From positions 323-64,322 of the forward strand of contig JAFYLH010000011.1 of NCBI GenBank assembly GCA_017537175.1: a DNA stretch of 64,000 bases. Reading direction: 5' to 3'. Source of the stretch: Clostridia bacterium (GTDB lineage Bacteria > Bacillota > Clostridia > Oscillospirales > CAG-272). The notes beneath the pieces were generated by a model. It made no database searches. It was not told where the DNA came from and saw only the letters and a program-made list of their open reading frames with translations. Shown piece after piece: positions 49,225-64,000 of this stretch. The first letter of the stretch is position 1; the number at the start of each line of letters is the position of its first letter. Made by a program: the position numbers and the translations under genes.

Positions 49225-49739
49225 TGTCCTATAGACTGATCCGTTCTAAAAGAAAGAGTATTTCAATTGAGATATCACCCGAGCTTGAGGTCATTGTCAG
49301 AGCACCTTTGTATATGAAGCAAAGGGATATCGACAAATTTGTTTATGACCACAGAGAGTGGATCATAAAGCACACAGAGCTCAGAAAGCAGAGATTGGCA
49401 AACAGACCCAAAGAGCCTACATTACAAGAGATAGCCGACCTTAAACTCATGGCAAAGGAAATATTGCCACTTAAGGTCGATTATTTTTCGGATATAATGG
49501 GTGTAGATGTTAAATCTGTAAAGATAACATCTGCAAAGAAGAGGTTGGGCAGCTGTTCTGCTGATAACGGTATTTGCTTTTCCTACAGGGTAATGATGTA
49601 TGATAATGACATAATCGATTATGTGGTCATACATGAGCTCGCTCACATAATTGAGCATAACCATTCTAAAAGATTTTACGATACTGTCAGAAAATACTGT
49701 CCCGATTATAAGGACAGGGAAAGGAGGATAAAGTGGTAA
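49224..49739 (+). CDS. YgjP-like metallopeptidase (DUF45 / M48-WLM-like)
   Basis: HELAHIIEHNHSKRFY HExxH motif at the position typical of DUF45 proteins. Confidence 0.8.
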   Translation: MSYRLIRSKRKSISIEISPELEVIVRAPLYMKQRDIDKFVYDHREWIIKHTELRKQRLANRPKEPTLQEIADLKLMAKEILPLKVDYFSDIMGVDVKSVKITSAKKRLGSCSADNGICFSYRVMMYDNDIIDYVVIHELAHIIEHNHSKRFYDTVRKYCPDYKDRERRIKW

Positions 49740-52021
49740 GCTTTGATAAGATCCCGTCATATATTACCGAGGTTTTTACCGATAAAGGAATAGATAACAT
49801 ATACCTTATGGCATATTGCGATATGGATAATGAGCACATATACTGTGATACCTACATTGCTCTTACCAAGGATATGCTCTATGTGACAAGCGGAACGGTT
49901 ATCCTTGAGCCAAAGGATAAGGGCAAGGGACTTGATTCCTTCTGGAAGGAAAAATCATTTGCAGGCTACAGTATAGATAGCATAGAGTCCCTGAAAGTAG
50001 AGGAACTTCTCTCCAGCGCAAGACTTACCGCTAAAACCTCAGACGGAGAGTATATCTTCCTTTCTGCAATGACTAATTTTTGTAAGGGAAACTGCAATCT
50101 CTTTGTAAAATACTTTGGCAAGATCAAAAAAGGTGATATTGTTTCGCCAGATTTTGAGATAGACAGTGAGGATGACCCCAAGAATAATTGTTGTCCAAAA
50201 TGCGGAATGCGTTATCCCGACAAAAACCGCAAGGTTTGTCCCAAATGTATGGAAAAGGGAAAGCTCTTTTCAAGATTTGGCGTATTTCTTTTAAAATACA
50301 AGATGGAAATGCTTATTCTGTTGATTTCGCTTGTGTTTCTTACAGGTACAAGTATTCTTATTCCGTACTTTTCCAACGGCTTTTTCTATGATAAGATCCT
50401 TGACGAAAGCGGCAGTCTTTACGGTCAGATACTGTTAGCTTTGGGCATTATTATTGCTACGAAGCTCTTGTCTGTGTTTGCAGATATGATCAACGGTTAT
50501 ATATCCACAAAGATAGCAACAAAGGTGGTATACGATTTAAAAAATACCATATTCGGTGCTATAGAACGCTTGTCTCTGAGCTTCTTTAACGGAAGACAGA
50601 CCGGCGGTCTTATGACACAGGTGAACGATGACTCCAACACTATCTACGGCTTTTTCTGTGACGGAATTCCGTATTTTCTTATAAATATAGTTCAGGTAGT
50701 GGTCCTCTGTGTTATTCTGTTTATAATGAACCCTCTGTTGGCGTTGCTTTCATTGAGCACTATTCCCGTGTTTTATTTTGTACTTCGCCGTACATATTCA
50801 GTATCCCGTAAGCTTCATACCCATCATTATTCGGGGGTAAGACGCATGAATTCTCAGCTTTCGGATGTGCTTGGCGGTATCCGCGTAGTTAAGGCGTTTG
50901 CCAAGGAAAACGAGGAGAGCCAACGATTCCACAAGAGTAACAGGATCGCCGCCGCAAGTAACCGTAAGCTTGCTCTTTTCAATAACTATGTATATCCGTA
51001 CATCGGAGTGATTCTTTATTTCGGTAATGTGATTGCCCTGGGCGTGGGCGGATATATGGTAATGAGCGACCGTTTTGCCTTTACATACGGTGATCTTATT
51101 ACCTTTACTGCATATATCAATATGATATACAGCCCTATGTATTTCTTCTCTCATATGATAGACTGGACGGCAAGTACATCAAATTCACTTCAAAGACTCT
51201 TTGAGATTTACGATACCGAGCCTGATATCACAGAGAAGGCGGATGCGGTGACTCTTGAAAATATCGAGGGTAGAGTTGAATTCCGTTCGGTGGATTTTGG
51301 ATATTCAAAGACCAAAAAAGTCATAGACAATGTAAGCTTTGAGATTGAAGCACAGCATATTCTCGGTATTGTCGGACATACGGGCGCAGGAAAAAGCACT
51401 ATTGCCAATCTTATTATGCGCCTTTATGATACCGATGAGGGAGGCGTTTATATTGACGGTGTCAATGTTAAGGAGCTCAGCTTTAAATCTCTTTATGAAA
51501 ATATTGCCATAGTTTCTCAGGAAACATACCTGTTTATTGGCTCTATACTTGATAATATCAGATACGCCAGACCCGATGCCTCATATGAGGAGGTCATCTA
51601 TGCCGCAAAATGCGCCGGTGCGCATGATTTTATCATCAAGCTTCCCGACGGATACAATACTATGATAGGCTTTGGCCACAAGGATCTTTCCGGTGGAGAA
51701 AGACAGCGTGTTTCTATTGCAAGAGCTATATTGCGCGATCCAAAGATACTCATTCTTGACGAGGCAACCGCCGCAATGGACACCAAGACCGAAAAGATGA
51801 TCCAGACTGCGCTTTCTTCTCTTACCAAGGGTAAGACCACCATTATGATAGCTCACCGTCTTTCCACTCTTCGCGATGCCCATAAGCTTATAGTAATAGA
51901 AAACGGCAGGGTCGCAGAGCAAGGAACTCACAAGGAGCTTCTTGATATTGAGGACGGAGTATACAATAAGCTTTATACCCTGCAGCTTGATGCATTGAAG
52001 AATGCAGGAATAACGGAGTAA
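49733..52021 (+). CDS. ABC exporter half-transporter (TMD+NBD) with an N-terminal extension of about 185 aa (PH-like region + zinc ribbon)
   Basis: GTG start 6 nt after aaggagg (49721-49727), overlapping the ygjP stop. CCPKCG...CPKC (nt 50189-50248) lies just before TM1, followed by six TM helices. NBD motifs are GHTGAGKST, LSGGERQR and ILILDEAT. Confidence 0.85.
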   Translation: MVSFDKIPSYITEVFTDKGIDNIYLMAYCDMDNEHIYCDTYIALTKDMLYVTSGTVILEPKDKGKGLDSFWKEKSFAGYSIDSIESLKVEELLSSARLTAKTSDGEYIFLSAMTNFCKGNCNLFVKYFGKIKKGDIVSPDFEIDSEDDPKNNCCPKCGMRYPDKNRKVCPKCMEKGKLFSRFGVFLLKYKMEMLILLISLVFLTGTSILIPYFSNGFFYDKILDESGSLYGQILLALGIIIATKLLSVFADMINGYISTKIATKVVYDLKNTIFGAIERLSLSFFNGRQTGGLMTQVNDDSNTIYGFFCDGIPYFLINIVQVVVLCVILFIMNPLLALLSLSTIPVFYFVLRRTYSVSRKLHTHHYSGVRRMNSQLSDVLGGIRVVKAFAKENEESQRFHKSNRIAAASNRKLALFNNYVYPYIGVILYFGNVIALGVGGYMVMSDRFAFTYGDLITFTAYINMIYSPMYFFSHMIDWTASTSNSLQRLFEIYDTEPDITEKADAVTLENIEGRVEFRSVDFGYSKTKKVIDNVSFEIEAQHILGIVGHTGAGKSTIANLIMRLYDTDEGGVYIDGVNVKELSFKSLYENIAIVSQETYLFIGSILDNIRYARPDASYEEVIYAAKCAGAHDFIIKLPDGYNTMIGFGHKDLSGGERQRVSIARAILRDPKILILDEATAAMDTKTEKMIQTALSSLTKGKTTIMIAHRLSTLRDAHKLIVIENGRVAEQGTHKELLDIEDGVYNKLYTLQLDALKNAGITE

Positions 52022-52024
52022 AAT

Positions 52025-52540
52025 ATGTCAAATGAAATTGTAAAGGAAGGCGCGGCAAATATAGTCCGCCTTGATAAGAATAATTCATCCTTTGGTATGA
52101 AGAACGGCTTTCTTTGTGCAAAGAAGGATGATGAAGGCTATGACAGAGTGTTTCTTCACAGAACATTCCCCTTTGATAAGCCTTGGGAATATATTTCTGT
52201 TATAGATCCTGATAATAATGAGATCGGTATTATATACAGTATCTCGGATTATGATGCCAAAACAGAGGAGCTGCTTCGTACAGAGCTCTGCCGTAAATAC
52301 TATGAGCCCCGTGTAAAAAGCATTGTTTCTCTTAAGGAAAGATACGGCTTTTCTTACTGGGTGATAATCACAGAAGAAGGCAGACGGGTTTCTCTTACAA
52401 TGCAGGATACCTTCAGAAACATCATCCGTATCGGTGATGACAAAGCCGTACTGCTTGATGTTGACGGTAACCGCTTTGTGATTGAGTCTATATCAGGCCT
52501 TGATAAAAAAAGCCACAGAAAGATCGAACTGTATATTTGA
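52025..52540 (+). CDS. DUF1854-like protein (171 aa)
   Basis: FLHRTFPFDKPWEYISVID...NEIGII...ELCRKYYEPRVKSI...DVDGNRFVIESISGLDKKS matches my recollection of the DUF1854 family, which is typically encoded next to ABC exporters. This was not verified by search. Confidence 0.55.
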   Translation: MSNEIVKEGAANIVRLDKNNSSFGMKNGFLCAKKDDEGYDRVFLHRTFPFDKPWEYISVIDPDNNEIGIIYSISDYDAKTEELLRTELCRKYYEPRVKSIVSLKERYGFSYWVIITEEGRRVSLTMQDTFRNIIRIGDDKAVLLDVDGNRFVIESISGLDKKSHRKIELYI

Positions 52541-52548
52541 GTTGTAAT

Positions 52549-54693
52549 ATGTCAAATAAAGAATTATTATGTAAGTTTCCCTTTGAGCTTCATCCCCTTA
52601 TACCCGACAGACGTTGTGACGGTTCTGTAGAGTTCAGTTCCGATTCCCTTGATGTCATAATTGATGGAGAGGTCTATATGTCTGTTGATACAGACGATAT
52701 ATCCGAGTTTATGATCGATAACGGTGTGGGATGCATATTTGTATCCTACAGGGCAAAGGATGGAAGCGTTCATCTTGTGTGCAGAAGCGATGTGAAGTAT
52801 TCAAAGGGTATTTCAAAGCAGGTGCGACGCCTTAATCACTATCTTGAGGATGCTGTGATGCCGCCCTTTTATGATAAGGGTGACAAATGTCCCAAGTGCG
52901 GCAGGCCCTACAGACCCGGATCTCATATATGTCTGCATTGCCAGGATAAGAAAAAGCTGCTGTTCAGAACCTTTAAGCTCTTTTCAAGATATAAGCTGTA
53001 TATGTTTATCGCCATAATACTCTTTTTTGCGGTAAGCGGACTATGTCTTGTTATACCTTATCTCAACAGAATAGCTGTCGATAACTATATCAAGAGTGAG
53101 GATCCTGTAAATATCGGTGGTTATGCACTTGTGATCCTGTCAATACTTGCCCTTGAAATTTTCATCAGGAGTATATCAAATATAAGATACCATGTTCTGA
53201 TCGCGGCAAGCAATAAGATGATCGTAGGGCTTAGAAACGAGCTTTTTGATAAGATAGAAAAGCTGTCCCTTGGTAATATTTCAAAGCGAAACACAGGCGA
53301 TCTTATGCGCCGTGTAGGATGGGATACCCATATATTGCAGAACTTTATCATTAACTATCTACCTAATATACTGGAGCAGATAGTTGTGTTTATTGCAGTA
53401 GCGATCTATATGCTCGTATATGATCCCATGCTGTTTGTAATGGTAGTTCTGCCCACCCCCTTTGTTGTTATATCCTTCAGACTGTTCTGGAAATCCATGA
53501 GAAATCTCTTCCATAAAAGATGGCTTGCGGCTTCTAAAACAAACTCAATATTACACGATATCTTTTCGGGTATAAGGGTTGTAAAATCCTTTGGTATGGA
53601 GCATAAGGAGTCAAAGCGCTTTGAGGAGGGAACTGCTGAAGAAAAGCGTATGCAGGAGATAACCGATATCCGCTGGAGCTTTATCATGCCTGTGCTCAGG
53701 TTTTTTATCGGCTTTGGAGAATTTGTGATCCTCTATTATGTAGGAAACCGTATCATCGGAAATACTATGAGTCTTGGCGAAATGGCTCAGTTCTCTTCGT
53801 ATACCGCAATGATATACGGTCCACTGCGTATGATAGCCCAAATCCCCAGAAGATGGATGGAGTTTTCCACCTCCTCTGCAAAGGTCTTTGAGATCTTGGA
53901 CGAGGAAGTTGATGTATCGGATAAGGACAAGGCTGTAGATATCGATATTAAAGGCAGGATAGATATAGACAATGTTTCCTTTGGCTATGACAGCGGTACA
54001 GAGGTGCTTCATAAGATCAATATACATATTGAGCCGGGTGAGTTTATCGGTTTGGTTGGTGCTTCAGGTGTAGGTAAATCGACACTTATCAACCTGATAA
54101 TGCGTATGTATGATGTTGAGAACGGCTCTATTACCGTCGACGGAGTTGATATTCGTGATATATCCCAAGAGTCACTTCGTTCTCAGATAGGCGTGGTTCT
54201 GCAGGAGACCTTCCTGTTTTCGGGTACGGTATATCAGAACATTGCCTATGCTAAGCCGGATGCCACTCGTGATGAGGTCATTGCTGTCTCAAAATTAGCA
54301 GGCTGTCACGACTTTATATGCCGTATGCCGGACGGATATAACACAAGGGTTGGCGAAAGAGGCTCTACACTTTCGGGTGGAGAGAGACAACGCGTTGCTA
54401 TTGCAAGAGCGTTGCTTCACGACCCTAAGATACTTATCCTCGATGAGGCGACTGCCTCTCTTGATACCGAGACCGAAAAGCAGATACAGGATGCTTTAGC
54501 CAAGCTTTCGGCACAGCGGACAACTATCGCCATAGCTCACCGATTGTCCACTCTTCGTAATGCCACAAGGCTTGTTGTGCTCGATAAGGGCAGGGTAGCA
54601 GAGGTAGGCAACCACGATGAGCTGATGGCTAAAGAGGGTATATATTACGGTCTTGTTATGGCACAGCGCGAAATGTCAAATATGGATAACTAA
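52549..54693 (+). CDS. ABC exporter half-transporter (TMD+NBD) with an N-terminal extension of about 145 aa (PH-like region + zinc ribbon)
   Basis: CPKCG...CLHC (nt 52888-52941) lies just before TM1. NBD motifs are GASGVGKST, LSGGERQR and ILILDEAT. The start is ATG 52549 or TTG 52537 (overlapping the upstream stop), with no clear RBS, so translational coupling is likely. Confidence 0.85.
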   Translation: MSNKELLCKFPFELHPLIPDRRCDGSVEFSSDSLDVIIDGEVYMSVDTDDISEFMIDNGVGCIFVSYRAKDGSVHLVCRSDVKYSKGISKQVRRLNHYLEDAVMPPFYDKGDKCPKCGRPYRPGSHICLHCQDKKKLLFRTFKLFSRYKLYMFIAIILFFAVSGLCLVIPYLNRIAVDNYIKSEDPVNIGGYALVILSILALEIFIRSISNIRYHVLIAASNKMIVGLRNELFDKIEKLSLGNISKRNTGDLMRRVGWDTHILQNFIINYLPNILEQIVVFIAVAIYMLVYDPMLFVMVVLPTPFVVISFRLFWKSMRNLFHKRWLAASKTNSILHDIFSGIRVVKSFGMEHKESKRFEEGTAEEKRMQEITDIRWSFIMPVLRFFIGFGEFVILYYVGNRIIGNTMSLGEMAQFSSYTAMIYGPLRMIAQIPRRWMEFSTSSAKVFEILDEEVDVSDKDKAVDIDIKGRIDIDNVSFGYDSGTEVLHKINIHIEPGEFIGLVGASGVGKSTLINLIMRMYDVENGSITVDGVDIRDISQESLRSQIGVVLQETFLFSGTVYQNIAYAKPDATRDEVIAVSKLAGCHDFICRMPDGYNTRVGERGSTLSGGERQRVAIARALLHDPKILILDEATASLDTETEKQIQDALAKLSAQRTTIAIAHRLSTLRNATRLVVLDKGRVAEVGNHDELMAKEGIYYGLVMAQREMSNMDN

Positions 54694-56744: not shown

Positions 56745-58337
56745 ATGTGTGACCGGGTCTTTTACGGAATGTACGATATGGAAGACAAAATTACTGATGC
56801 TTTGGAAGAGTCTGACGAGATTGTTGCCGAAGAAGTCGTTTCGGTGATTGAAGAACAAGATGCTGATAATGTTAAACAGTCAGCAGAGTATAAAGAATTT
56901 GAGCAGAAGCTTGCCGATGTCGGTGAGGATTACGACGCTTTGGTAGATTTCTATAATAATATTGATACTCAGCTTGAGCCCGAGCTTTATGAGTGCTGCA
57001 AGGAAGTGGCTAAAACTAAGCTTTGCGAGGTTCAGAGATCTTGTTTGGATGCTGTTATTTCTGATGCAGCCGCTATGGCCTGTCAGGAGATCCGAACCGC
57101 GATAGCTGAGGCGGACAGATACGGCTTTGATGAAAAGATCCTTGCGGACGCAAAGCTTAAGCTTGATAAATTACTGGATATATCTGAGCACAAGGTCCTT
57201 TCTGATTTCTGTTCCAAAATTGATACAATCGGTATACCTGAGATCTTTGAATTCAGGGCTATGCTCGAGAGTGAAGGCTTCAAGCACGAAAATGTATCGC
57301 GTTATACAAGTAAGATAAATGACAGATATTGGACTATTATTTATAAGGAATCCTGCGCTAAGTGTAAACAGAGTGTAGTGCATGAGCTTGTACGGGATGA
57401 AGTCGCGGCGAATGATCTTATCTCCTGCTTTGAAAAATGCGGTGTATCCCCCTACAAGGTTGCCGCTTATACAACCAGAGTTAAAAATGTATTTGAATTA
57501 CGCAAGGAATATGACAATGTAAGGACTCCCATTGTAAATGAGATCCGTGAAAAATCCTTGCAGTTTGTGGGCGGTATCATTGAAAAGGACATTAGCTCCA
57601 GCTCTGTAAGCTGTATTGAACCGGATATCTTTATATGCGATGATGCTGCAATAAGACAGCATTTGGTATCTGATCCGTTCAACTCTCTTTACATTGACGA
57701 AGAAATACCGCTGTTATATATGTACAGATACGGTTACGATGATAACTCGACGCCTGTTTTCAGTATAACAAATGAGGCGATGTATTTCCCTTGTGAGGAT
57801 GAAGAACAGCCTTATATCAGAATACCCTTTGAAAATATCGGTGATATCAGGGCGGCGGTAACCACAGGTGAGGTGTATATTTGCTATGATGATGCATCTG
57901 TGATTATACAAACCGAGCTTCCTTATAAGGTTAGAGTACTCCTTGGTACAGCTATTCGCAAAATAGCTGACTATCTCATAGATTCAAAGAGAAAGAACCA
58001 AACATTGCTTGATTCCCTGAGATATGAATATGACCGTAATCTTGCGCTGCTGTTTAAGAAGTATCCTATACCCAACGATGACATCTATTCCTTTGAAAAG
58101 CCTCAAAGTTTGATCGACCTGCAGACTGCTCTGGAAAGCTCCGAACCCTGGGTATGTAAGTGTGGTAAGGTAAACAAGGGTAATTTCTGCAGTCAGTGCG
58201 GTACTAACAAAGATGAGGGTATAATTGAATGGACATGCGACTGCGGAACTGTTAACAGAGCTAATTTCTGTACATCTTGCGGTGGGCCCAGACCTCAGAA
58301 TGACGAAAATGAAGAAACTGTCGATATAATTGAATAA
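56745..58337 (+). CDS. Hypothetical 530-aa protein: acidic N-terminus, helical middle, PH-like region, two C-terminal zinc ribbons
   Basis: WVCKCGKVNKGNFCSQCG and WTCDCGTVNRANFCTSCG lie at nt 58149-58286. The start is uncertain (ATG 56745 lies 14 nt after gaggagg; ATGs at 56769 and 56778 are also in frame). A terminator follows. Confidence 0.6.
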   Translation: MCDRVFYGMYDMEDKITDALEESDEIVAEEVVSVIEEQDADNVKQSAEYKEFEQKLADVGEDYDALVDFYNNIDTQLEPELYECCKEVAKTKLCEVQRSCLDAVISDAAAMACQEIRTAIAEADRYGFDEKILADAKLKLDKLLDISEHKVLSDFCSKIDTIGIPEIFEFRAMLESEGFKHENVSRYTSKINDRYWTIIYKESCAKCKQSVVHELVRDEVAANDLISCFEKCGVSPYKVAAYTTRVKNVFELRKEYDNVRTPIVNEIREKSLQFVGGIIEKDISSSSVSCIEPDIFICDDAAIRQHLVSDPFNSLYIDEEIPLLYMYRYGYDDNSTPVFSITNEAMYFPCEDEEQPYIRIPFENIGDIRAAVTTGEVYICYDDASVIIQTELPYKVRVLLGTAIRKIADYLIDSKRKNQTLLDSLRYEYDRNLALLFKKYPIPNDDIYSFEKPQSLIDLQTALESSEPWVCKCGKVNKGNFCSQCGTNKDEGIIEWTCDCGTVNRANFCTSCGGPRPQNDENEETVDIIE

Positions 58338-58410: not shown

Positions 58411-58650
58411 ATGTATATACCGCTTGATGTTACTCTTGATGTACCTATAGAGCTTGGTAATGAGTTCCAGGATGCAATGGGTTATGTAGACTGGCGCTTT
58501 AAGGTAGAAGAGCTTACTGTAGAATCTTCCGATCCAAAGCCTCCTCAAACCGGTGATAATATGATTATTTTTATTATCATTATGGCGATAAGTGCTGTTA
58601 CATTTACCATAATTTCAATACCTCTTTTGAAAAAGAAAAAGGCGGAATAA
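58411..58650 (+). pseudogene. Remnant: C-terminal cell-wall sorting signal (LPXTG-type) of a surface protein
   Basis: The 79-aa ORF begins right after an in-frame TAG (58405-58407), with no signal peptide, RBS or promoter. It ends with PPQTGD (58540-58557), a hydrophobic helix and KKKKAE, which is the classic sortase sorting signal. It is bracketed by two terminators. Confidence 0.5.
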
Positions 58651-58846: not shown

Positions 58847-60613
58847 ATGACAATTTTATTAAACATAATTGAATTATTAGGCGGCTTGGGGTTCTTCCTT
58901 TTTGGTATGACACTTTTAGGTGACGGTTTAAAGCGCGTTGCCGGCGGTAAGATGGAAACTATCCTTGGCAAGCTCACATCCAATACCTTTAAAGGCGTAC
59001 TTCTCGGTGCATTTGTTACTGCTGTTATTCAGTCATCATCTGCAACAACCATTATGGTTGTGGGCTTTGTTAACTCCGGTATTATGCAGCTTGTTAATGC
59101 TATCGGAATTATTATGGGTGCCAATATAGGAACAACAGCTACAGGATGGTTGCTGGTGCTGGCCGGCGGAAAGGGCGATGGCTGGCTTTCTTCTGCTACT
59201 ATATTTGCCATAGTTGCTTTTATTGGTATAATACTCTACTTCTTTTGTAAAAAACAAACTCTTAAAAATCTTGGTATGATCCTTCTGGCACTTTCCGTTC
59301 TTATGAGCGGAATGGAAGCAATGAAGGATGCAATGACCTCGGATGAGTTAACAGAAATGTTCAAAAGCTTTATATCTGCGGTAAGCAATCCATTCCTTGC
59401 AATATTTGTTGGCATTCTTGTTACTTCCATTATACAGAGCTGTTCGGCATCAATAGGAATATTACAGGCACTTGCAATTACCGGTATTATAGGCTATGAT
59501 GTTGCGATTCCGATGGTTGTGGGTATGTGTATAGGTGCTTGCATGCCGGTTCTTCTTTCTGCCATAGGCGCAAATGTTAATGGAAAGCGGGCGGCTATTG
59601 TATATCTCTATTTCAATTTGTCCGGTGCTGTGATTTTATTGAGCGGATTTTATCTCATAGATGCTTTTGTTCATTTTGATATTATGCAACAAACTGCTAC
59701 AAGCATGGGTATTGCAATAGTAAATACTGTATTTAAGATTGCAGCTACCGTGCTTTTGGCTCCAATGGCTAAGCTTATAGAGAAGCTTGCTGTTATTACC
59801 ATAAGAGATAATAACAGCGAAGACGATGAATTTGAAGAAAATCTCCTTGATGATCGTTTCTTGAATTATCCGCCCCTTGCTCTCGAGCAAAGCGGAAAAA
59901 CTATGGATCAGATGACCAATGCGGCATTTAAAAATTTCAAAAAAGCGTCCTCTCTGTTATCAGATTTTGATCAGACAAAGTATGATAAGATCATGTCCCG
60001 TGAGTTGCGGGTCGATTCATTCGAGGATTCTCTCGGTTCATATCTAGTCAGATTGAATAAGGCAGCGCTTTCTGAAAAGGAAACACATACAGCCGCCAAG
60101 TATTTGTCCTGTATAACAAATGTTGAGCGTATTTCCGACCATGCAGTAAATCTTGCAGATCTTGCGAAAGAGCTTAACGATAAGAATATTAATTTCTCTT
60201 TTCAGGCAAAAAAGGAGCTTGACATGTGTGTTGAGGCTATATCCGAGATCCTTGATATGACAATCAAGGCTGCCCATGATAATGATGTGGAAACAGCTAA
60301 AAAGGTAGAGCCTCTGGAGGATGTTATAGATATTCTCATTAAAAATGCCAAGACACAGCATATTCAACGAGTGCAGGAAGGTAACTGTACTCTGGAGCTT
60401 GGCTTTGTGTTTAACGAATGTCTGATCAACTTTGAGCGTGTGGCAGACCATTGCTCCAATATAGCGGTATCTGTATTAGAGCTTGCCGATTCTCATGTGC
60501 ACGCACATAGCTATCTACGCGATGTTAAGCTGGATAGCCACGAGAGTTACCATAAGCTCTTTGCTGAGTATGCCGATAAATTTGATATAGTGTTGTCGGA
60601 AATATTAAATTAA
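58847..60613 (+). CDS. Na/Pi cotransporter family protein with C-terminal PhoU-like domain
   Basis: Duplicated QSSSATT / QSCSASIG type NaPi-II repeats (VIQSSSATTIMVVGF, IIQSCSASIGILQAL), followed by PhoU-like helices (ERISDHAVN, ERVADHCSN). Confidence 0.9.
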   Translation: MTILLNIIELLGGLGFFLFGMTLLGDGLKRVAGGKMETILGKLTSNTFKGVLLGAFVTAVIQSSSATTIMVVGFVNSGIMQLVNAIGIIMGANIGTTATGWLLVLAGGKGDGWLSSATIFAIVAFIGIILYFFCKKQTLKNLGMILLALSVLMSGMEAMKDAMTSDELTEMFKSFISAVSNPFLAIFVGILVTSIIQSCSASIGILQALAITGIIGYDVAIPMVVGMCIGACMPVLLSAIGANVNGKRAAIVYLYFNLSGAVILLSGFYLIDAFVHFDIMQQTATSMGIAIVNTVFKIAATVLLAPMAKLIEKLAVITIRDNNSEDDEFEENLLDDRFLNYPPLALEQSGKTMDQMTNAAFKNFKKASSLLSDFDQTKYDKIMSRELRVDSFEDSLGSYLVRLNKAALSEKETHTAAKYLSCITNVERISDHAVNLADLAKELNDKNINFSFQAKKELDMCVEAISEILDMTIKAAHDNDVETAKKVEPLEDVIDILIKNAKTQHIQRVQEGNCTLELGFVFNECLINFERVADHCSNIAVSVLELADSHVHAHSYLRDVKLDSHESYHKLFAEYADKFDIVLSEILN

Positions 60614-60681
60614 GATCAAGTAAGTTTTTTAAAATAGACAAAGTTTAGGATACAATATAGATTATATACAGGAGATAAACA

Positions 60682-62787
60682 ATGGCTATTCTTAGATGTA
60701 AGTCGTGTGGCGGTCCGCTGGATGTAAAAGAAGGGGATAAGATTGTGGAATGTTCATATTGCAATCTGCAGCAAACTATTCCGACGATTGACGATGACTT
60801 TAAATTCCAAATGTTCAATCAGGCTAATGATCTTAGGCGTCAGTTTGATTTTGACGGTGCTAAAGCATTTTTACAGGCAATTATTTCAAGGCATCCGGAG
60901 GAATCGGAAGCTTATTGGCATATCTGTCTGTGCAAATATGGTATTATGTATGTCGAGGATCAACAGACATATACACAGATACCTACCTTTTACAGAATGA
61001 TACCTCAGAGCATATTGTCTGACGAAGATTATCTTAAAGCATGCAAATATGCCGGTGTCGCTTCCTGGAAATATGAGGATGAAGCGAAAAAAATTGAGAA
61101 ATTACAAAAAAAGATTTTTGATTTGTCAAACAGCGAAGATCCGTATGATATATTTATTTGTTATAAAAAGACTGATATAGATACAGGCTTACAAACCGAG
61201 GATAGCAAAATTGCGGCTCAGATCTACATGAAGCTCATAGAAAACGGTTACCGGGTATTTTGGGCAGAGCGTTCTCTTCCTGCCGGTTGTGAGTACGAAC
61301 CGTACATTTATGCGGCACTGTCTACAGCAAAAATTATGTTGGTGTTAGGTAGTGATAAGCGTTATTTTGAAGCTCCTTGGGTTAAAAATGAGTGGATTCG
61401 TTTCCTCGATATGATGAGCAGAGATTCAGGCAAATCCATTATGACCTGTTATAAGAATATTACTGCGGATGACATTCCATCTAATTTAAAGAACCTGCAG
61501 GCCTTGGATATGACCAACATGCTCTTTTCAAGTGATTTGTTGGAGCGAATTCAAAAGAAGATTCCCAAGAAGAAAGAAATGCCGTCTGACGATTTGCTGA
61601 ATGCATTTAAAATCTTCCAGGCAAACAATCCAAACGAATCTATCCAAAATAAAGAAATAGCCTTCAATGACGGTGTGTATTCGGGTGAAGCAATTGCAGG
61701 AAAACCCCATGGATACGGTATATATCATTATTCGAATGGCGTTAGATACGAAGGAAATTGGAGTGTTGGTAAAAGGCATGGACAGGGAACAGCGTTCTTT
61801 AATAACGGCGATACCTGGACTGGTGAATGGAAGGATAACATCCCATATAACGGTAGTGGAGCTTATCATTTTATAAAGGACAATACAACAAAATGTTTTG
61901 GTGGTGTCTTAAAAAACGGTAGACTTTACGGTGAAGGAAAGTCTTATGTTAATGGGCAGGTTTTATATGAAGGATATTTTGAAAACGGAATTTTGAACGG
62001 TCAGGGTACTGCTTATACAAACGGAGTATCCTGTACAGGTGAGTTCCGTCAAGGCAGGCCTTGGAACGCCAAAGGAACATTTTCATTGAATCTAAAAAGA
62101 CCGGCTATATTTAATGGTGAATGGGTCAACGGCCTTCCGCACGGTTTTGGTATAATTCAGTTTAATGATAAAAATGACAGTGTTGAAGGTTATTTCAACA
62201 ATGGTTTGAATGGAGATGTATTTTGGTATTTTTCAGACGGACGGCATTATGAAGGAGAGATCAGTAATTGTGCGTTATCCGGACAAGGAAAAATGTTTTC
62301 AAAAAATGATACTTTGATATACGAAGGAAGCTATGCTAACGGCAATGCTAACGGTTACGGTACTTATTATGTAAACTCTTCCGAAAGATATGAAGGTGAA
62401 TTTCTCAACGGCAAATACAACGGACAGGGTACATATTTTTATCCTCAAGGCACATGGACAGGTGTATGGAAGGACGGCCAGCGCTGGACGGGACAAGGTA
62501 TGATATTTTTCTATGATGATAACGGTAAACAAACAGGCAAGTTTTTTAATGGACATATGCTGAACGGTGTTGCTTCGGGCAAAGGTATTTTAAGGCAAGC
62601 AGACGGAACACGCTTCGACGGTGAATTTTTCAATGACCGTTATTATAATGGTACAGTATATAATGCAAAGAACCAGGTTACAGATACATATGTTAAAGGC
62701 GAGAGTCAACAATTAAAAGCACACAAACGCAATCAGGCTATCGCAGGTACGGCATTTGACATTCTTAAGGGGCTTTCCCGTTTCTGA
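60682..62787 (+). CDS. Zinc-ribbon / TIR-domain / MORN-repeat protein (701 aa)
   Basis: CKSCG...CSYC at aa 6-27. YDIFICYKKTD ... APWVKNEW (aa ~154-285) is a TIR-like block. About 14 YxGxWxxGxxxGxG MORN units span aa ~331-680. caggag RBS lies 7 nt upstream. Confidence 0.85.
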   Translation: MAILRCKSCGGPLDVKEGDKIVECSYCNLQQTIPTIDDDFKFQMFNQANDLRRQFDFDGAKAFLQAIISRHPEESEAYWHICLCKYGIMYVEDQQTYTQIPTFYRMIPQSILSDEDYLKACKYAGVASWKYEDEAKKIEKLQKKIFDLSNSEDPYDIFICYKKTDIDTGLQTEDSKIAAQIYMKLIENGYRVFWAERSLPAGCEYEPYIYAALSTAKIMLVLGSDKRYFEAPWVKNEWIRFLDMMSRDSGKSIMTCYKNITADDIPSNLKNLQALDMTNMLFSSDLLERIQKKIPKKKEMPSDDLLNAFKIFQANNPNESIQNKEIAFNDGVYSGEAIAGKPHGYGIYHYSNGVRYEGNWSVGKRHGQGTAFFNNGDTWTGEWKDNIPYNGSGAYHFIKDNTTKCFGGVLKNGRLYGEGKSYVNGQVLYEGYFENGILNGQGTAYTNGVSCTGEFRQGRPWNAKGTFSLNLKRPAIFNGEWVNGLPHGFGIIQFNDKNDSVEGYFNNGLNGDVFWYFSDGRHYEGEISNCALSGQGKMFSKNDTLIYEGSYANGNANGYGTYYVNSSERYEGEFLNGKYNGQGTYFYPQGTWTGVWKDGQRWTGQGMIFFYDDNGKQTGKFFNGHMLNGVASGKGILRQADGTRFDGEFFNDRYYNGTVYNAKNQVTDTYVKGESQQLKAHKRNQAIAGTAFDILKGLSRF

Positions 62788-62910
62788 TATAAGAGCTGCA
62801 TTATTTCTTTTGCGATTCTTTAGGTTGGACAACTTCAGCTAAAGTCACGCTCACCTCTTGGATGTCGGGAGAATCGTAAGAAATTCCGAAATGTCCTATA
62901 TGACTAATAT

Positions 62911-62948
62911 AAACCACACAGTTGACCGTATGGTGGATTGTGTGGTTT
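62911..62948. terminator. Hairpin terminator 124 nt downstream of the TIR-MORN gene
   Basis: aaaccacaca / tgtgtggttt 10-bp stem with 18-nt loop, followed by ttatttat. Confidence 0.65.
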
Positions 62949-62993
62949 TATTTATAAGCTCTATCGCCTCGCATTACTCGTTGCATCGTCGGC

Positions 62994-63020
62994 GGAAAAC
63001 AGTTCACCGGACTGTTTTCC
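62994..63020. other. Stem-loop in non-coding tract
   Basis: ggaaaacagt / actgttttcc 10-bp stem with 7-nt loop. A second small hairpin, gcaaag cgag ctttgc, lies at 63025-63040. Confidence 0.7.
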
Positions 63021-63084
63021 TTCTGCAAAGCGAGCTTTGCTCCCTCCTTGTTCGATCCCCCTCGCTGCGGATTTATTGATATAC

Positions 63085-63112
63085 AAAAAAGCACCCTTAT
63101 GGGTGCTTTTTT
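63085..63112. terminator. Bidirectional Rho-independent terminator
   Basis: aaaaaagcaccc ttat gggtgctttttt: A-tract, 6-bp GC-rich stem and T-tract, symmetrical on both strands. Confidence 0.85.
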
Positions 63113-63118
63113 GTATAT

Positions 63119-63148
63119 GGTGGAGGCGATGCGTAGATAGCCTCCACC
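63119..63148. other. Stem-loop whose arms read like tRNA acceptor/CCA ends
   Basis: ggtggaggc / gcctccacc 9-bp stem with 12-nt loop. With flanking bases it reads tggtggaggc ... gcctccacca. Confidence 0.6.
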
Positions 63149-63283
63149 AACACAAGTATAAAATGACTATCTTGGCTATCCCGGACTATATGTACGAAAC
63201 GGCGAGGATCGTCATACGTCATTTTAAAAGAAAATAACGGACTTTTTCCTATTCATATTTTATGCTTATATTGTGCATGTATT

Positions 63284-63538
63284 TTATTGTATTGAAACTG
63301 TATGGTGGACAGCCCGCGTGCCCTTTGTTTTTCGATACATCTTTGATGAAGCTCTGCCAAGAGCAACAGACACAGAATGTGTTAAGGTATCGGTAGAGAA
63401 GTAGTCACTATATACTTGAGGGTTCTTACCCGGGATAGTTTTGTTTATGGTATCTATAATGATTTCCTTGTAGTTAAGAAGGTTAATATCTTTGTACTTT
63501 GAATTTGCTAAGCGGCATTTTCTTATACGGTTACTCAT
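63284..63538 (-). CDS. Hypothetical small protein (84 aa)
   Basis: Strong RBS (aaggag, 5 nt before the ATG at 63538), with terminators downstream at 63148-63085; no recognisable motif. Confidence 0.5.
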   Translation of the reverse strand: MSNRIRKCRLANSKYKDINLLNYKEIIIDTINKTIPGKNPQVYSDYFSTDTLTHSVSVALGRASSKMYRKTKGTRAVHHTVSIQ

Positions 63539-63650
63539 AGTTGCTCCTTTCGTTGTTATTAGGGGATATATTATGTCTATTATTTATTTGTTAGTTATTT
63601 TATTGAGTTAACCGTAATATTAGGTTGTTAGTAGATTTTTTGTATATAAA

Positions 63651-63689
63651 AAGGAAACAAGCTGCAGCCTCGCTGCCGCTTGTTTCCTT
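63651..63689. terminator. Orphan 18-bp hairpin in AT-rich spacer
   Basis: aaggaaacaagctgcagc / gctgccgcttgtttcctt (one mismatch) with 3-nt loop, flanked by A-run and T-rich sequence; not downstream of any annotated gene. Confidence 0.55.
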
Positions 63690-63906
63690 ACTGTTATTTA
63701 TTTGTTCGTTTGTAACCGAGAATATAATCTATATTTAATCGAAACAATGGCGGCAGGGAGATTCTCTCTGCCTTCATTATTATATTGCTAAATTGTATAA
63801 GTTTTAAGAAATCATCAAAAACCGTAGAAATTTGAAGGAATTCATGATATAATATAATTTACGAAATTTTACTCATACAGAAATGGATCGGAAAGAAGGT
63901 GGTGTA

Positions 63907-64000
63907 ATGATACGAATTGCCTTATGCGATGATGAGCAAAACATACTCGATGAAGTTTCACAATACATAAATAAGTACGCCGAAAAGAAAAATAACCAAG
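63907..64000 (+). CDS. Response regulator receiver domain (LytTR-type regulator likely), 3'-truncated by the window edge
   Basis: MIRIALCDDEQNILDEV is the typical start of LytR/AlgR-family regulators; gaaggtgg RBS upstream. Confidence 0.7.
   Translation, partial: MIRIALCDDEQNILDEVSQYINKYAEKKNNQ

Follow-up and report, generated by a model that had tools for sequence, protein, structure and literature searches.

A TIR protein with a MORN array in a Clostridial genome as a partnerless member of a large zinc-ribbon/TIR family with variable C-termini

The stretch of DNA analysed here (64,000 nucleotides of a Clostridia bacterium genome, hereafter the window) carries near its end an intact, ATG-started open reading frame (ORF; 60682..62787, + strand) for a 701-residue protein that joins a zinc ribbon, a helical domain, a TIR domain (named for the Toll/interleukin-1 receptor), a linker, an array of MORN repeats and a C-terminal helix. 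Judged by homology, the protein is a member of a large Clostridial family in which a constant N-terminal module of zinc ribbon, helical domain and TIR domain is followed by a variable C-terminus, and we hold this membership and the anatomy set out below with high confidence. A Shine-Dalgarno sequence (AGGAG, 60670..60674, + strand), read directly, lies 7 nucleotides before the ATG. The 68-nucleotide gap after the preceding Na/Pi transporter gene contains a promoter-like site on the same strand (TTTAAA-17-TACAAT, 60628..60656), found by consensus scan only; since no terminator was found between the two genes, co-transcription is also possible. An identical protein occurs on 8 contigs that we read, and the places shown for them come from four different samples.

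All parts of the protein are given here on the + strand. The N-terminal four-cysteine ribbon (60691..60777, residues 4-32, strands as modelled) is built from CxxC pairs at residues 6-9 and 24-27, and C6, C9, C24 and C27 do not vary among 69 homologues. Next comes a conserved helical domain of TPR-like kind (60793..61134, residues 38-151), which includes a beta-hairpin and a long connecting helix, is about 50% identical throughout the family and gives a weak TPR-like Pfam signal between ribbon and TIR. The TIR domain (61144..61560, residues 155-293, by Pfam TIR_2 and Foldseek) is joined by a flexible, poorly conserved linker with no transmembrane (TM) segment (61561..61647, residues 294-322, pLDDT 43-51) to the MORN array (61651..62694, residues 324-671, by Pfam and the AlphaFold2 (AF2) model), and a basic, amphipathic helix ending ...AIAGTAFDILKGLSRF closes the chain (62707..62781, residues 676-700). 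The AF2 model of residues 1-320, made with 69 homologues, reaches a pLDDT of 91 and a pTM of 0.82 and packs ribbon, helical domain, connecting helix and TIR into one compact rigid unit. In the full-length model (pLDDT 88) the linker is disordered at residues 300-322 and the pTM falls to 0.47, indicating that the two halves of the protein have no fixed mutual orientation. No hydrophobic or TM segment was seen in the sequence or the model of the window protein, so it does not have the architecture of a Toll-like receptor. These results bear out a preliminary description of the gene, made from the letters alone, which had read here a 701-residue ORF with a good ribosome-binding site, a CxxC...CxxC ribbon at residues 6-27, a TIR layout at residues ~154-285 and about 14 MORN units, the last count being essentially right.

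The TIR assignment is carried by Pfam TIR_2, which matches residues 157-280 (E=2e-12, 48.1 bits against a cut-off of 28), by Pfam TIR (24.6 against 21.3) and by structure. Foldseek comparison of the 1-320 model with the PDB gave 43 matches at E<=1e-3, and all those listed are TIR-domain structures, headed by the SARM1 TIR, the SPARTA TIR-APAZ and AbTir (7uxu; TM-score 0.81, rmsd 2.6), with BtTir, L7, PdTIR and MAL among the further matches. To place the catalytic residue we used a TIR-only alignment, because the whole-protein profile (A1) was swamped by MORN matches. In these alignments E237 (codon gag, 61390..61392, + strand, in the motif W233-V-K-N-E237-W) is in register with the glutamate of AtTIR SSWCLDEL, BtTir WTEYEL and L6/L7 SKWCLMEL, as the preliminary description had proposed; this is the catalytic glutamate of TIR NADases. 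W233, N236, E237 and W238 are invariant in the family (69 sequences), and the aromatic residue four positions before the glutamate reproduces the W-x3-E pattern of AbTir and BtTir. The modelled domain is thus a true TIR fold of catalytic type with E237 as its putative catalytic glutamate, and we consider it somewhat more likely than not that the protein cleaves NAD.

With SARM1/TIR-1, the best structural match of the window TIR, the protein has in common a helical regulatory region ahead of the TIR and an expected need to oligomerise for catalysis, whereas it has no ARM/SAM homology, a different domain order, a zinc ribbon and a MORN array, and comes from a bacterial family with SPFH operons. 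With AbTir, BtTir and TcpB it shares the TIR_2 fold and the W-x3-E motif; those proteins, in contrast, are shorter than 300 residues, have an N-terminal coiled coil and are constitutively active in vitro, whereas the one family relative that has been assayed was inactive. That relative, EUBELI_RS07950 of E. eligens (C4Z355), is the only family member with experimental data; it is 38% identical to the window protein over residues 1-282 and has the same N-terminal zinc-ribbon/helical/TIR module, with a TPR-type rather than a MORN C-terminus. Its isolated TIR domain, expressed in E. coli as two constructs, is listed with product 'None' (PMC9092222 Table S2). This is weak negative evidence because only 12 of the 44 community TIR domains in that study were active (32 of 44 inactive) (PMC9092222).

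The MORN assignment is equally direct. Pfam MORN scores 81.5 bits on the window protein against a cut-off of 22.5, a profile search against the PDB matched the MORN1 structures 6t6q and 6t4d (4e-11), and residues 324-671 of the full-length model form 30 strands, that is about 15 hairpins, at a pLDDT of ~95. Repeat sequence and beta-hairpin rod are those of MORN1, junctophilins and the radial-spoke protein RSPH1; unlike in these, the array is fused to a bacterial TIR module and ends in a family-specific amphipathic helix. Eukaryotic MORN repeats act in membrane apposition or dimerisation. A helix of the type TALDILKGLSxL, with a hydrophobic moment (muH) of 0.4-0.6, is kept throughout the MORN subfamily, and that at residues 676-700 may serve in membrane targeting or in dimerisation. 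In full-text searches, no paper came up that connects a bacterial TIR with MORN, SPFH/flotillin or TM2, nor any description of the family; a recent systematic survey of TIR signalling that lists 29 putative Thoeris types mentions neither SPFH, Band-7, zinc ribbons nor MORN in its text. This agrees with the earlier suggestion that TIR plus MORN is not a characterised defence architecture.

Searches with the whole protein returned about 45 full-length zinc-ribbon/TIR/MORN proteins and more than 1000 that share only residues 1-300, at ~50% identity, and then diverge. With residues 1-300 alone, phmmer against 1.84 billion cluster representatives found at least 3,656 clusters (50% identity) at E<=1e-30; of the 150 best matches listed, nearly all have the module at residues 1-300, in proteins that range from 421 to 2,415 residues. 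Among GTDB species genomes there are at least 580 loci, in Oscillospiraceae, Acutalibacteraceae, Ruminococcus, Lachnospiraceae, Erysipelotrichaceae and related gut and rumen lineages. The four cysteines, the motif EAYW...LCKYGI of the helical domain and the TIR motifs DIFICYK and WVKNEW are invariant or nearly so, and all are retained in the window protein. What follows the module was counted in 107 complete paralogues from sampled GTDB loci: by Pfam, the C-terminus is RCC1_2 in 28, TPR in at least 23, DUF6273 in 19, MORN in 4, BspA-type leucine-rich repeats (LRR) in 3, and Flg_new, ankyrin and WG-beta in one each. One close relative (P0035) carries a TM2 domain where the MORN array would be. 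Although first read as an orphan, the gene is no lone oddity: it belongs to a very large family, of which MORN is a minority C-terminus.

In half of these paralogues (53 of 107) the TIR/TPR part is followed by a strongly hydrophobic segment. Six of the 53 are tail-anchored, 21 are multi-pass and 26 have a single TM segment with at least 40 further residues. In all ten single-TM paralogues checked (L014, L019, L021, L033, L036, L039, L071, L080, L081 and L087) an RCC1, DUF6273 or Flg_new domain lies after the TM segment, and lysine plus arginine average 6.3 before it and 1.5 after it (n=32), in line with the positive-inside rule. The position of the TM segment and the charge bias together indicate that the single-TM paralogues (26/107) are type-II proteins, with a cytoplasmic zinc ribbon and TIR and, where checked, an extracytoplasmic repeat domain. 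Their layout resembles that of Toll-like receptors with the order inverted. The MORN variant, the window protein included, has no TM segment. The proposal of the preliminary description that the MORN array is a sensor or envelope tether fits the membrane association of the family.

This topology also bears on the notion that the protein is directed at the animal host, disturbing Toll-like receptor signalling or NAD metabolism in the manner of TcpB, TcpC or TirS. Bacterial TIR proteins with such host-directed roles are known, the organism lives in the gut or rumen, and children's gut metagenomes examined in PMC9092222 contain family members. The protein has, however, neither a signal peptide nor a secretion system in its surroundings; its N-terminal zinc ribbon and the cytoplasmic or membrane-bound operon partners described below point to an intracellular role, and the TIR of the TM paralogues lies on the cytoplasmic side. 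We therefore give a host-directed function almost no credence.

In relatives, the gene is normally one of several. Downstream of the TIR-MORN gene in P0002, P0020 and P0032, at 13-135 nucleotides, lie a gene for an SPFH protein and one for a protein of ~235 residues, and the order TIR-MORN, SPFH, ~235-residue protein recurs in P0007, P0009, P0019 and P0014. In the SPFH partner (616-670 residues), zinc ribbons at the N-terminus are combined with a Band_7_1 SPFH domain, a coiled coil, a Gly-rich segment and, at the C-terminus, four WxCxCG..GKFCxECG ribbons. The ~235-residue partner (L005 12014-12730, L007 12089-12790, L009 12011-12745 and 45 further loci; hereafter 4-TM) has four TM helices and a cytoplasmic tail in which, over 48 sequences, D183 and P184 are invariant, S182 is 93% conserved and R230, N231 and K238 are near-invariant, the C-terminus reading R-N..C-K..K; the S-D-P motif and C-terminal tail could bind a ligand or serve an interaction. 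The 4-TM protein matches no model of Pfam, NCBIfam or PADLOC, and its identification as the TPM-domain protein YdjH was rejected for want of a Pfam match.

We ran hidden Markov models of both partners on 80 GTDB loci. SPFH was present in 50 of the 80 and SPFH with 4-TM in 46; in every locus with hits the partners are on the same strand as the TIR gene or genes, at a median gap of 28.5 nucleotides and in the order TIR-SPFH-4TM or SPFH-4TM-TIR. Tandem TIR paralogues (2-4) occur in 29 of the 80. When only loci with at least 4 kb on both sides are counted, SPFH is found in 19 of 30 and 11 (~37%) are partner-less. All seven MORN members examined besides the window copy have SPFH and 4-TM, and four of the seven, P0002, P0007 and P0014 among them, also have a small zinc-ribbon/TM2 gene after 4-TM.

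The window gene has neither an SPFH nor a 4-TM partner within 10 kb, counting the window and the flanks of its source contig, and is the sole copy lacking them among the eight MORN members examined. Pfam analysis of the neighbours found no SIR2, Macro, STING, SAVED, Argonaute or cyclase gene up to 10 kb on either side, and neither the protein nor its neighbours show features of SPARTA, CBASS or Pycsar (APAZ with pAgo, SAVED, STING, cyclase). A Thoeris ThsA-type effector (SIR2/SLOG, Macro-TM or another described type) is likewise absent within 10 kb, in agreement with the first reading of the locus as having no Thoeris, CBASS, Pycsar or SPARTA layout. The window locus is not a defence island. 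Run on the protein itself, PADLOC matched PDC-S66 over the TIR region only (25 bits, E=2.4e-6, residues 133-273); its ThsB1 match, also in the TIR region, is at noise level (14.8 bits, E=0.0028), and the NCBIfam Thoeris ThcB4 model reaches 26 bits against a cut-off of 220, so neither places the protein in a Thoeris TIR family. Across the window protein and the partner proteins, PADLOC, NCBIfam and PHROGs gave no meaningful family beyond TIR, MORN and Band_7_1.

The preliminary description took the gene for a single-gene system, a self-contained abortive-infection effector in which the MORN array would sense a phage or envelope cue and the TIR would deplete NAD+ with no partner. As a description of the window locus the single gene stands; it does not hold for the family, which is normally organised as an operon of three or four genes. 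The absence of a partner within 10 kb, the partner-less third or so of well-flanked family loci, the intact catalytic motif and a layout of regulatory domain plus TIR that resembles SARM1 all speak for autonomous action. Against it, all seven other MORN genes examined are operonic with SPFH and 4-TM, suggesting that the ancestral state was multi-gene, the locus is no defence island and PADLOC returned no single-gene match above noise; we regard such an effector as quite unlikely.

The SPFH partner has a described counterpart in the PspA-YdjGHI (SamGHI) system of B. subtilis. There, the membrane proteins YdjG and YdjH bring YdjI/SamI, an SPFH protein that is itself soluble, to the membrane, and YdjI/SamI organises PspA foci (PMC8581546; bioRxiv 10.64898/2026.02.06.704340; PMC11237479). 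Like YdjI, the family's SPFH protein combines Band_7_1, a low-complexity segment and one or more C-terminal zinc ribbons, its gene adjoins one or more membrane-protein genes, and zinc-ribbon proteins are encoded in the operon. Unlike the B. subtilis system, the family operons have neither PspA nor a TPM-domain YdjH, TIR proteins take the place of the client, and the window has none of the partners. The YdjI-like SPFH type is known from membrane-stress signalling, not from immunity (PMC8581546; bioRxiv 10.64898/2026.02.06.704340).

An alternative is that the TIR does not catalyse but, like MyD88 or TIRAP, serves as a scaffold or adaptor, assembling homotypically or heterotypically with TM-bearing TIR paralogues on an SPFH platform in an envelope-stress or surface-signal pathway. 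The association of the partner type with membrane stress would suit such a role, as would the inactivity of the E. eligens TIR in vitro, the presence of many paralogues per genome or operon and the mostly housekeeping character of the neighbouring genes. A scaffold would not, however, need the glutamate and the tryptophan at -4, which are typical of catalytic TIRs and invariant family-wide, and isolated TIR domains are often inactive when they do not oligomerise, as were most of those in the same study. On this balance a purely structural role seems to us distinctly improbable.

Codon usage had been cited in the preliminary description as atypical and as a sign of horizontal acquisition. The difference is visible: GC is 0.39 in the gene against a mean of 0.44 for the other window genes (z -1.7), GC at third codon positions (GC3) 0.36 against 0.46 (z -2.0), and the preference for AAA, GAA, TTA/TTG and CCG is raised (z 1.9 to 2.9). 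In codon-usage distance the gene ranks 4th of 48 window genes and first among those longer than 400 residues. It is not confined to this gene, however, as the adjoining Na/Pi transporter gene has the same bias (GC3 0.37, CCG 0.43) and several further window genes are equally AT-rich; the genes that had served as contrast sit at the opposite, probably highly expressed, codon extreme. Between the window gene and its nearest relative (P0002, 76% amino-acid identity) synonymous divergence (dS) is saturated, so no recent transfer is visible, and with the bias shared by the Na/Pi gene the case for horizontal acquisition from codon style is weak. The closest Na/Pi transporter orthologues (72-76% identity) share no synteny with the window and so cannot inform on an insertion.

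More broadly, family members occupy unrelated contexts in different genomes, as accessory genes do. The cassette of the closest relative (76% identity) is flanked in L005 (685-7898 and 13437-15296) by a tyrosine integrase, a serine recombinase, TnpV, a CI-like repressor and an HD/dGTPase-like 619-residue gene, which suggests that it is carried on an integrative element in that genome. The family was not found in INPHARED or PLSDB, and IMG/VR holds 2 loci; this near-absence from phages and plasmids fits a host function.

Measured against P0002, nonsynonymous divergence (dN) comes to 0.06 for the N-terminal module and 0.20 for the MORN array, about 3.3 times as much. With dN far below the saturated dS, the gene is, by this comparison, under purifying selection. 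The result bears on the possibility that the window copy is a functionless leftover, a paralogue left behind when its operon partners were deleted or rearranged and now decaying. Such an origin would account for the one copy of the eight MORN members that has no SPFH and 4-TM, for a 496-nucleotide, hairpin-rich, non-coding stretch at the place where relatives carry the SPFH, 4-TM and TM2 genes, and for AT-rich codon usage, which is compatible with low expression. It sits poorly with the selection just described, with an intact 701-residue ORF that keeps every family-invariant residue behind a good ribosome-binding site, with the recurrence of the identical sequence in several independent samples and with the 11 orphan copies among the 30 well-flanked loci, and we judge it very improbable.

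The downstream stretch itself had been called a hairpin-dense scar. Hairpins are dense indeed: four stems (62911..63149, no strand assigned) include a perfect 18-bp, T/A-flanked, bidirectional terminator-like stem at 63079-63118, which a 13-bp stem (63118-63149) directly abuts. A scar cannot be shown, because tblastn found no remnants of SPFH, 4-TM or TM2 genes in the window and the spacer matched neither the fetched related loci (blastn) nor the rest of the window (blastn-short) nor phages; the hairpins read as terminators. They were also considered as a known RNA, a candidate rejected because Rfam on 60000-64000 gave only sub-threshold, terminator-type matches (RNAI, leader peptides).

The reading that we prefer, and to which we give about an even chance, is that the window gene encodes a cytoplasmic TIR sensor, probably bound peripherally to the membrane, that cleaves NAD once triggered; it would belong to a Thoeris-like membrane system but be separated from its partners. 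In such a system the variable C-termini would be input modules, acting as sensor or tether. An envelope trigger, for example phage attack or membrane damage, would lead the TIR domains to self-associate, and E237 would then cleave NAD+, resulting either in NAD+ depletion or in a product that signals to the module of SPFH, 4-TM and, where present, TM2. Several variable TIR sensors may thus feed one constant effector set, following a Thoeris-like logic. In MORN proteins, array and C-terminal helix together might stand in for the TM anchor and provide peripheral attachment or dimerisation. Being detached from partner genes, the window copy would act with partners encoded elsewhere in the genome, or alone.

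Thoeris anti-phage systems, of types I-XI, pair ThsB TIR sensors with ThsA-type effectors. The analogy with them rests on a catalytic-glutamate TIR and on one to several divergent, tandem TIR genes beside a constant non-TIR partner. Many effectors of newly described Thoeris types are TM proteins (bioRxiv 10.64898/2025.12.03.692087). The family differs from Thoeris in having no SLOG, SIR2, Macro or other described effector, its partners being SPFH, 4-TM and zinc-ribbon/TM2 proteins; its TIR proteins are large, with a zinc-ribbon/helical prefix and a repeat or ectodomain suffix, and the window copy is partnerless.

Several observations weigh against the preferred reading. The only relative assayed gave no NAD product from either construct of its isolated TIR. 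We only infer that the MORN array and the C-terminal helix bind membrane, and the domain arrangement in the full-length model is not confident. PADLOC models match none of the SPFH, 4-TM and zinc-ribbon/TM2 partners, and the lack of SPFH and 4-TM genes near the window gene means that a system-level model may not apply to it. Finally, 142 ORFs flanking the cassettes, surveyed with no baseline, are mostly housekeeping and not syntenic, with scattered defence-type hits (SngC, BrxHI, dGTPase, pAgo with SIR2 (2), PD-T4-6, PycTM, Schlafen/AlbA_2 (2), DUF2971 (3) and DUF4760 (2)). An anti-phage role of the protein or its family is accordingly tentative, and we would put its chances a little below even.

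A bolder extension, which we find unlikely, is that the family is a bacterial counterpart of Toll-like receptor signalling. In this scheme, arrays of type-II receptors would sense phages or surface ligands through diversified extracellular RCC1, DUF6273, LRR and Flg_new domains, catalytic TIRs would assemble on a YdjI-like SPFH platform with 4-TM and TM2 as output, and TIR-MORN proteins would be peripheral sensors or adaptors with no TM segment. Unlike animal Toll-like receptors, the family has its TIR at the N-terminus (type II, inverted order), other ectodomains and a retained catalytic glutamate, and the window protein has neither a TM segment nor an ectodomain.

TIR enzymes are central to the immunity of animals, plants and bacteria. 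To our knowledge, the bacterial TIR systems characterised so far are cytosolic and most such work has been done outside gut Clostridia. Here, thousands of clusters in dominant gut and rumen Clostridia join a catalytic-type TIR to diversified, often extracellular repeats and to a flotillin-like SPFH scaffold. If active, the family would tie membrane or surface sensing to NAD-derived signalling in commensals, supply a case of receptor-like TIR proteins in prokaryotes, give YdjI-type SPFH proteins a client and be one more possible origin of the NAD-derived metabolites that have been detected in gut communities. As a sensor gene separated from its partner genes, the window copy is in effect a natural experiment, and its value lies less in itself than in the undescribed, membrane-centred family that it exposes, with a distinctive operon and receptor-like paralogues.

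Some of the cassettes have neighbours of their own. In L095 (2001-5997) a PP2C phosphatase, a Ser/Thr kinase and a 254-residue TIR_2-FHA protein are encoded directly upstream of a TIR-MORN/SPFH/4-TM/zinc-ribbon-TM2 operon, which hints that the system is phospho-regulated in some genomes. Two of the seven MORN cassettes adjoin genes of metallo-beta-lactamase (MBL) fold with a Pfam Anti-Pycsar_Apyc1 match (L096 4395-5213 and L097 11514-12242, both - strand), which may be ordinary MBL hydrolases or enzymes that degrade a nucleotide signal.

In the window, the gene is preceded by two ABC exporters with a DUF1854 gene, a MATE transporter, a 530-residue gene, a 79-residue TM ORF and the Na/Pi-cotransporter/PhoU gene. 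The exporter pair is fused and brackets the DUF1854 gene (49733-54693), and the TTG start of the second exporter overlaps the DUF1854 stop, an ordinary heterodimeric exporter operon. Downstream, the source contig continues with a small convergent ORF that matches no family (84 residues, 63284-63538), a LytTR/HATPase_c_5 two-component pair, a nucleoside phosphorylase and an ABC importer; the LytTR response regulator and HATPase_c_5 histidine kinase, an Agr-like pair, start at 63908-64000 and run on in L001 (13226-15220). The 530-residue ORF (56745-58337, + strand) lies two genes upstream of the TIR-MORN gene, and Pfam, PADLOC, NCBIfam and PHROG gave no match to it. Its last ~60 residues form two WxCxCG..FCxxCG zinc ribbons with 40-50% identity to those at the C-terminus of the SPFH partners, and it is followed, on the same strand as the TIR-MORN gene, by the 79-residue, single-TM ORF (58411-58650, + strand); a functional link of these two ORFs to the TIR-MORN gene is possible.

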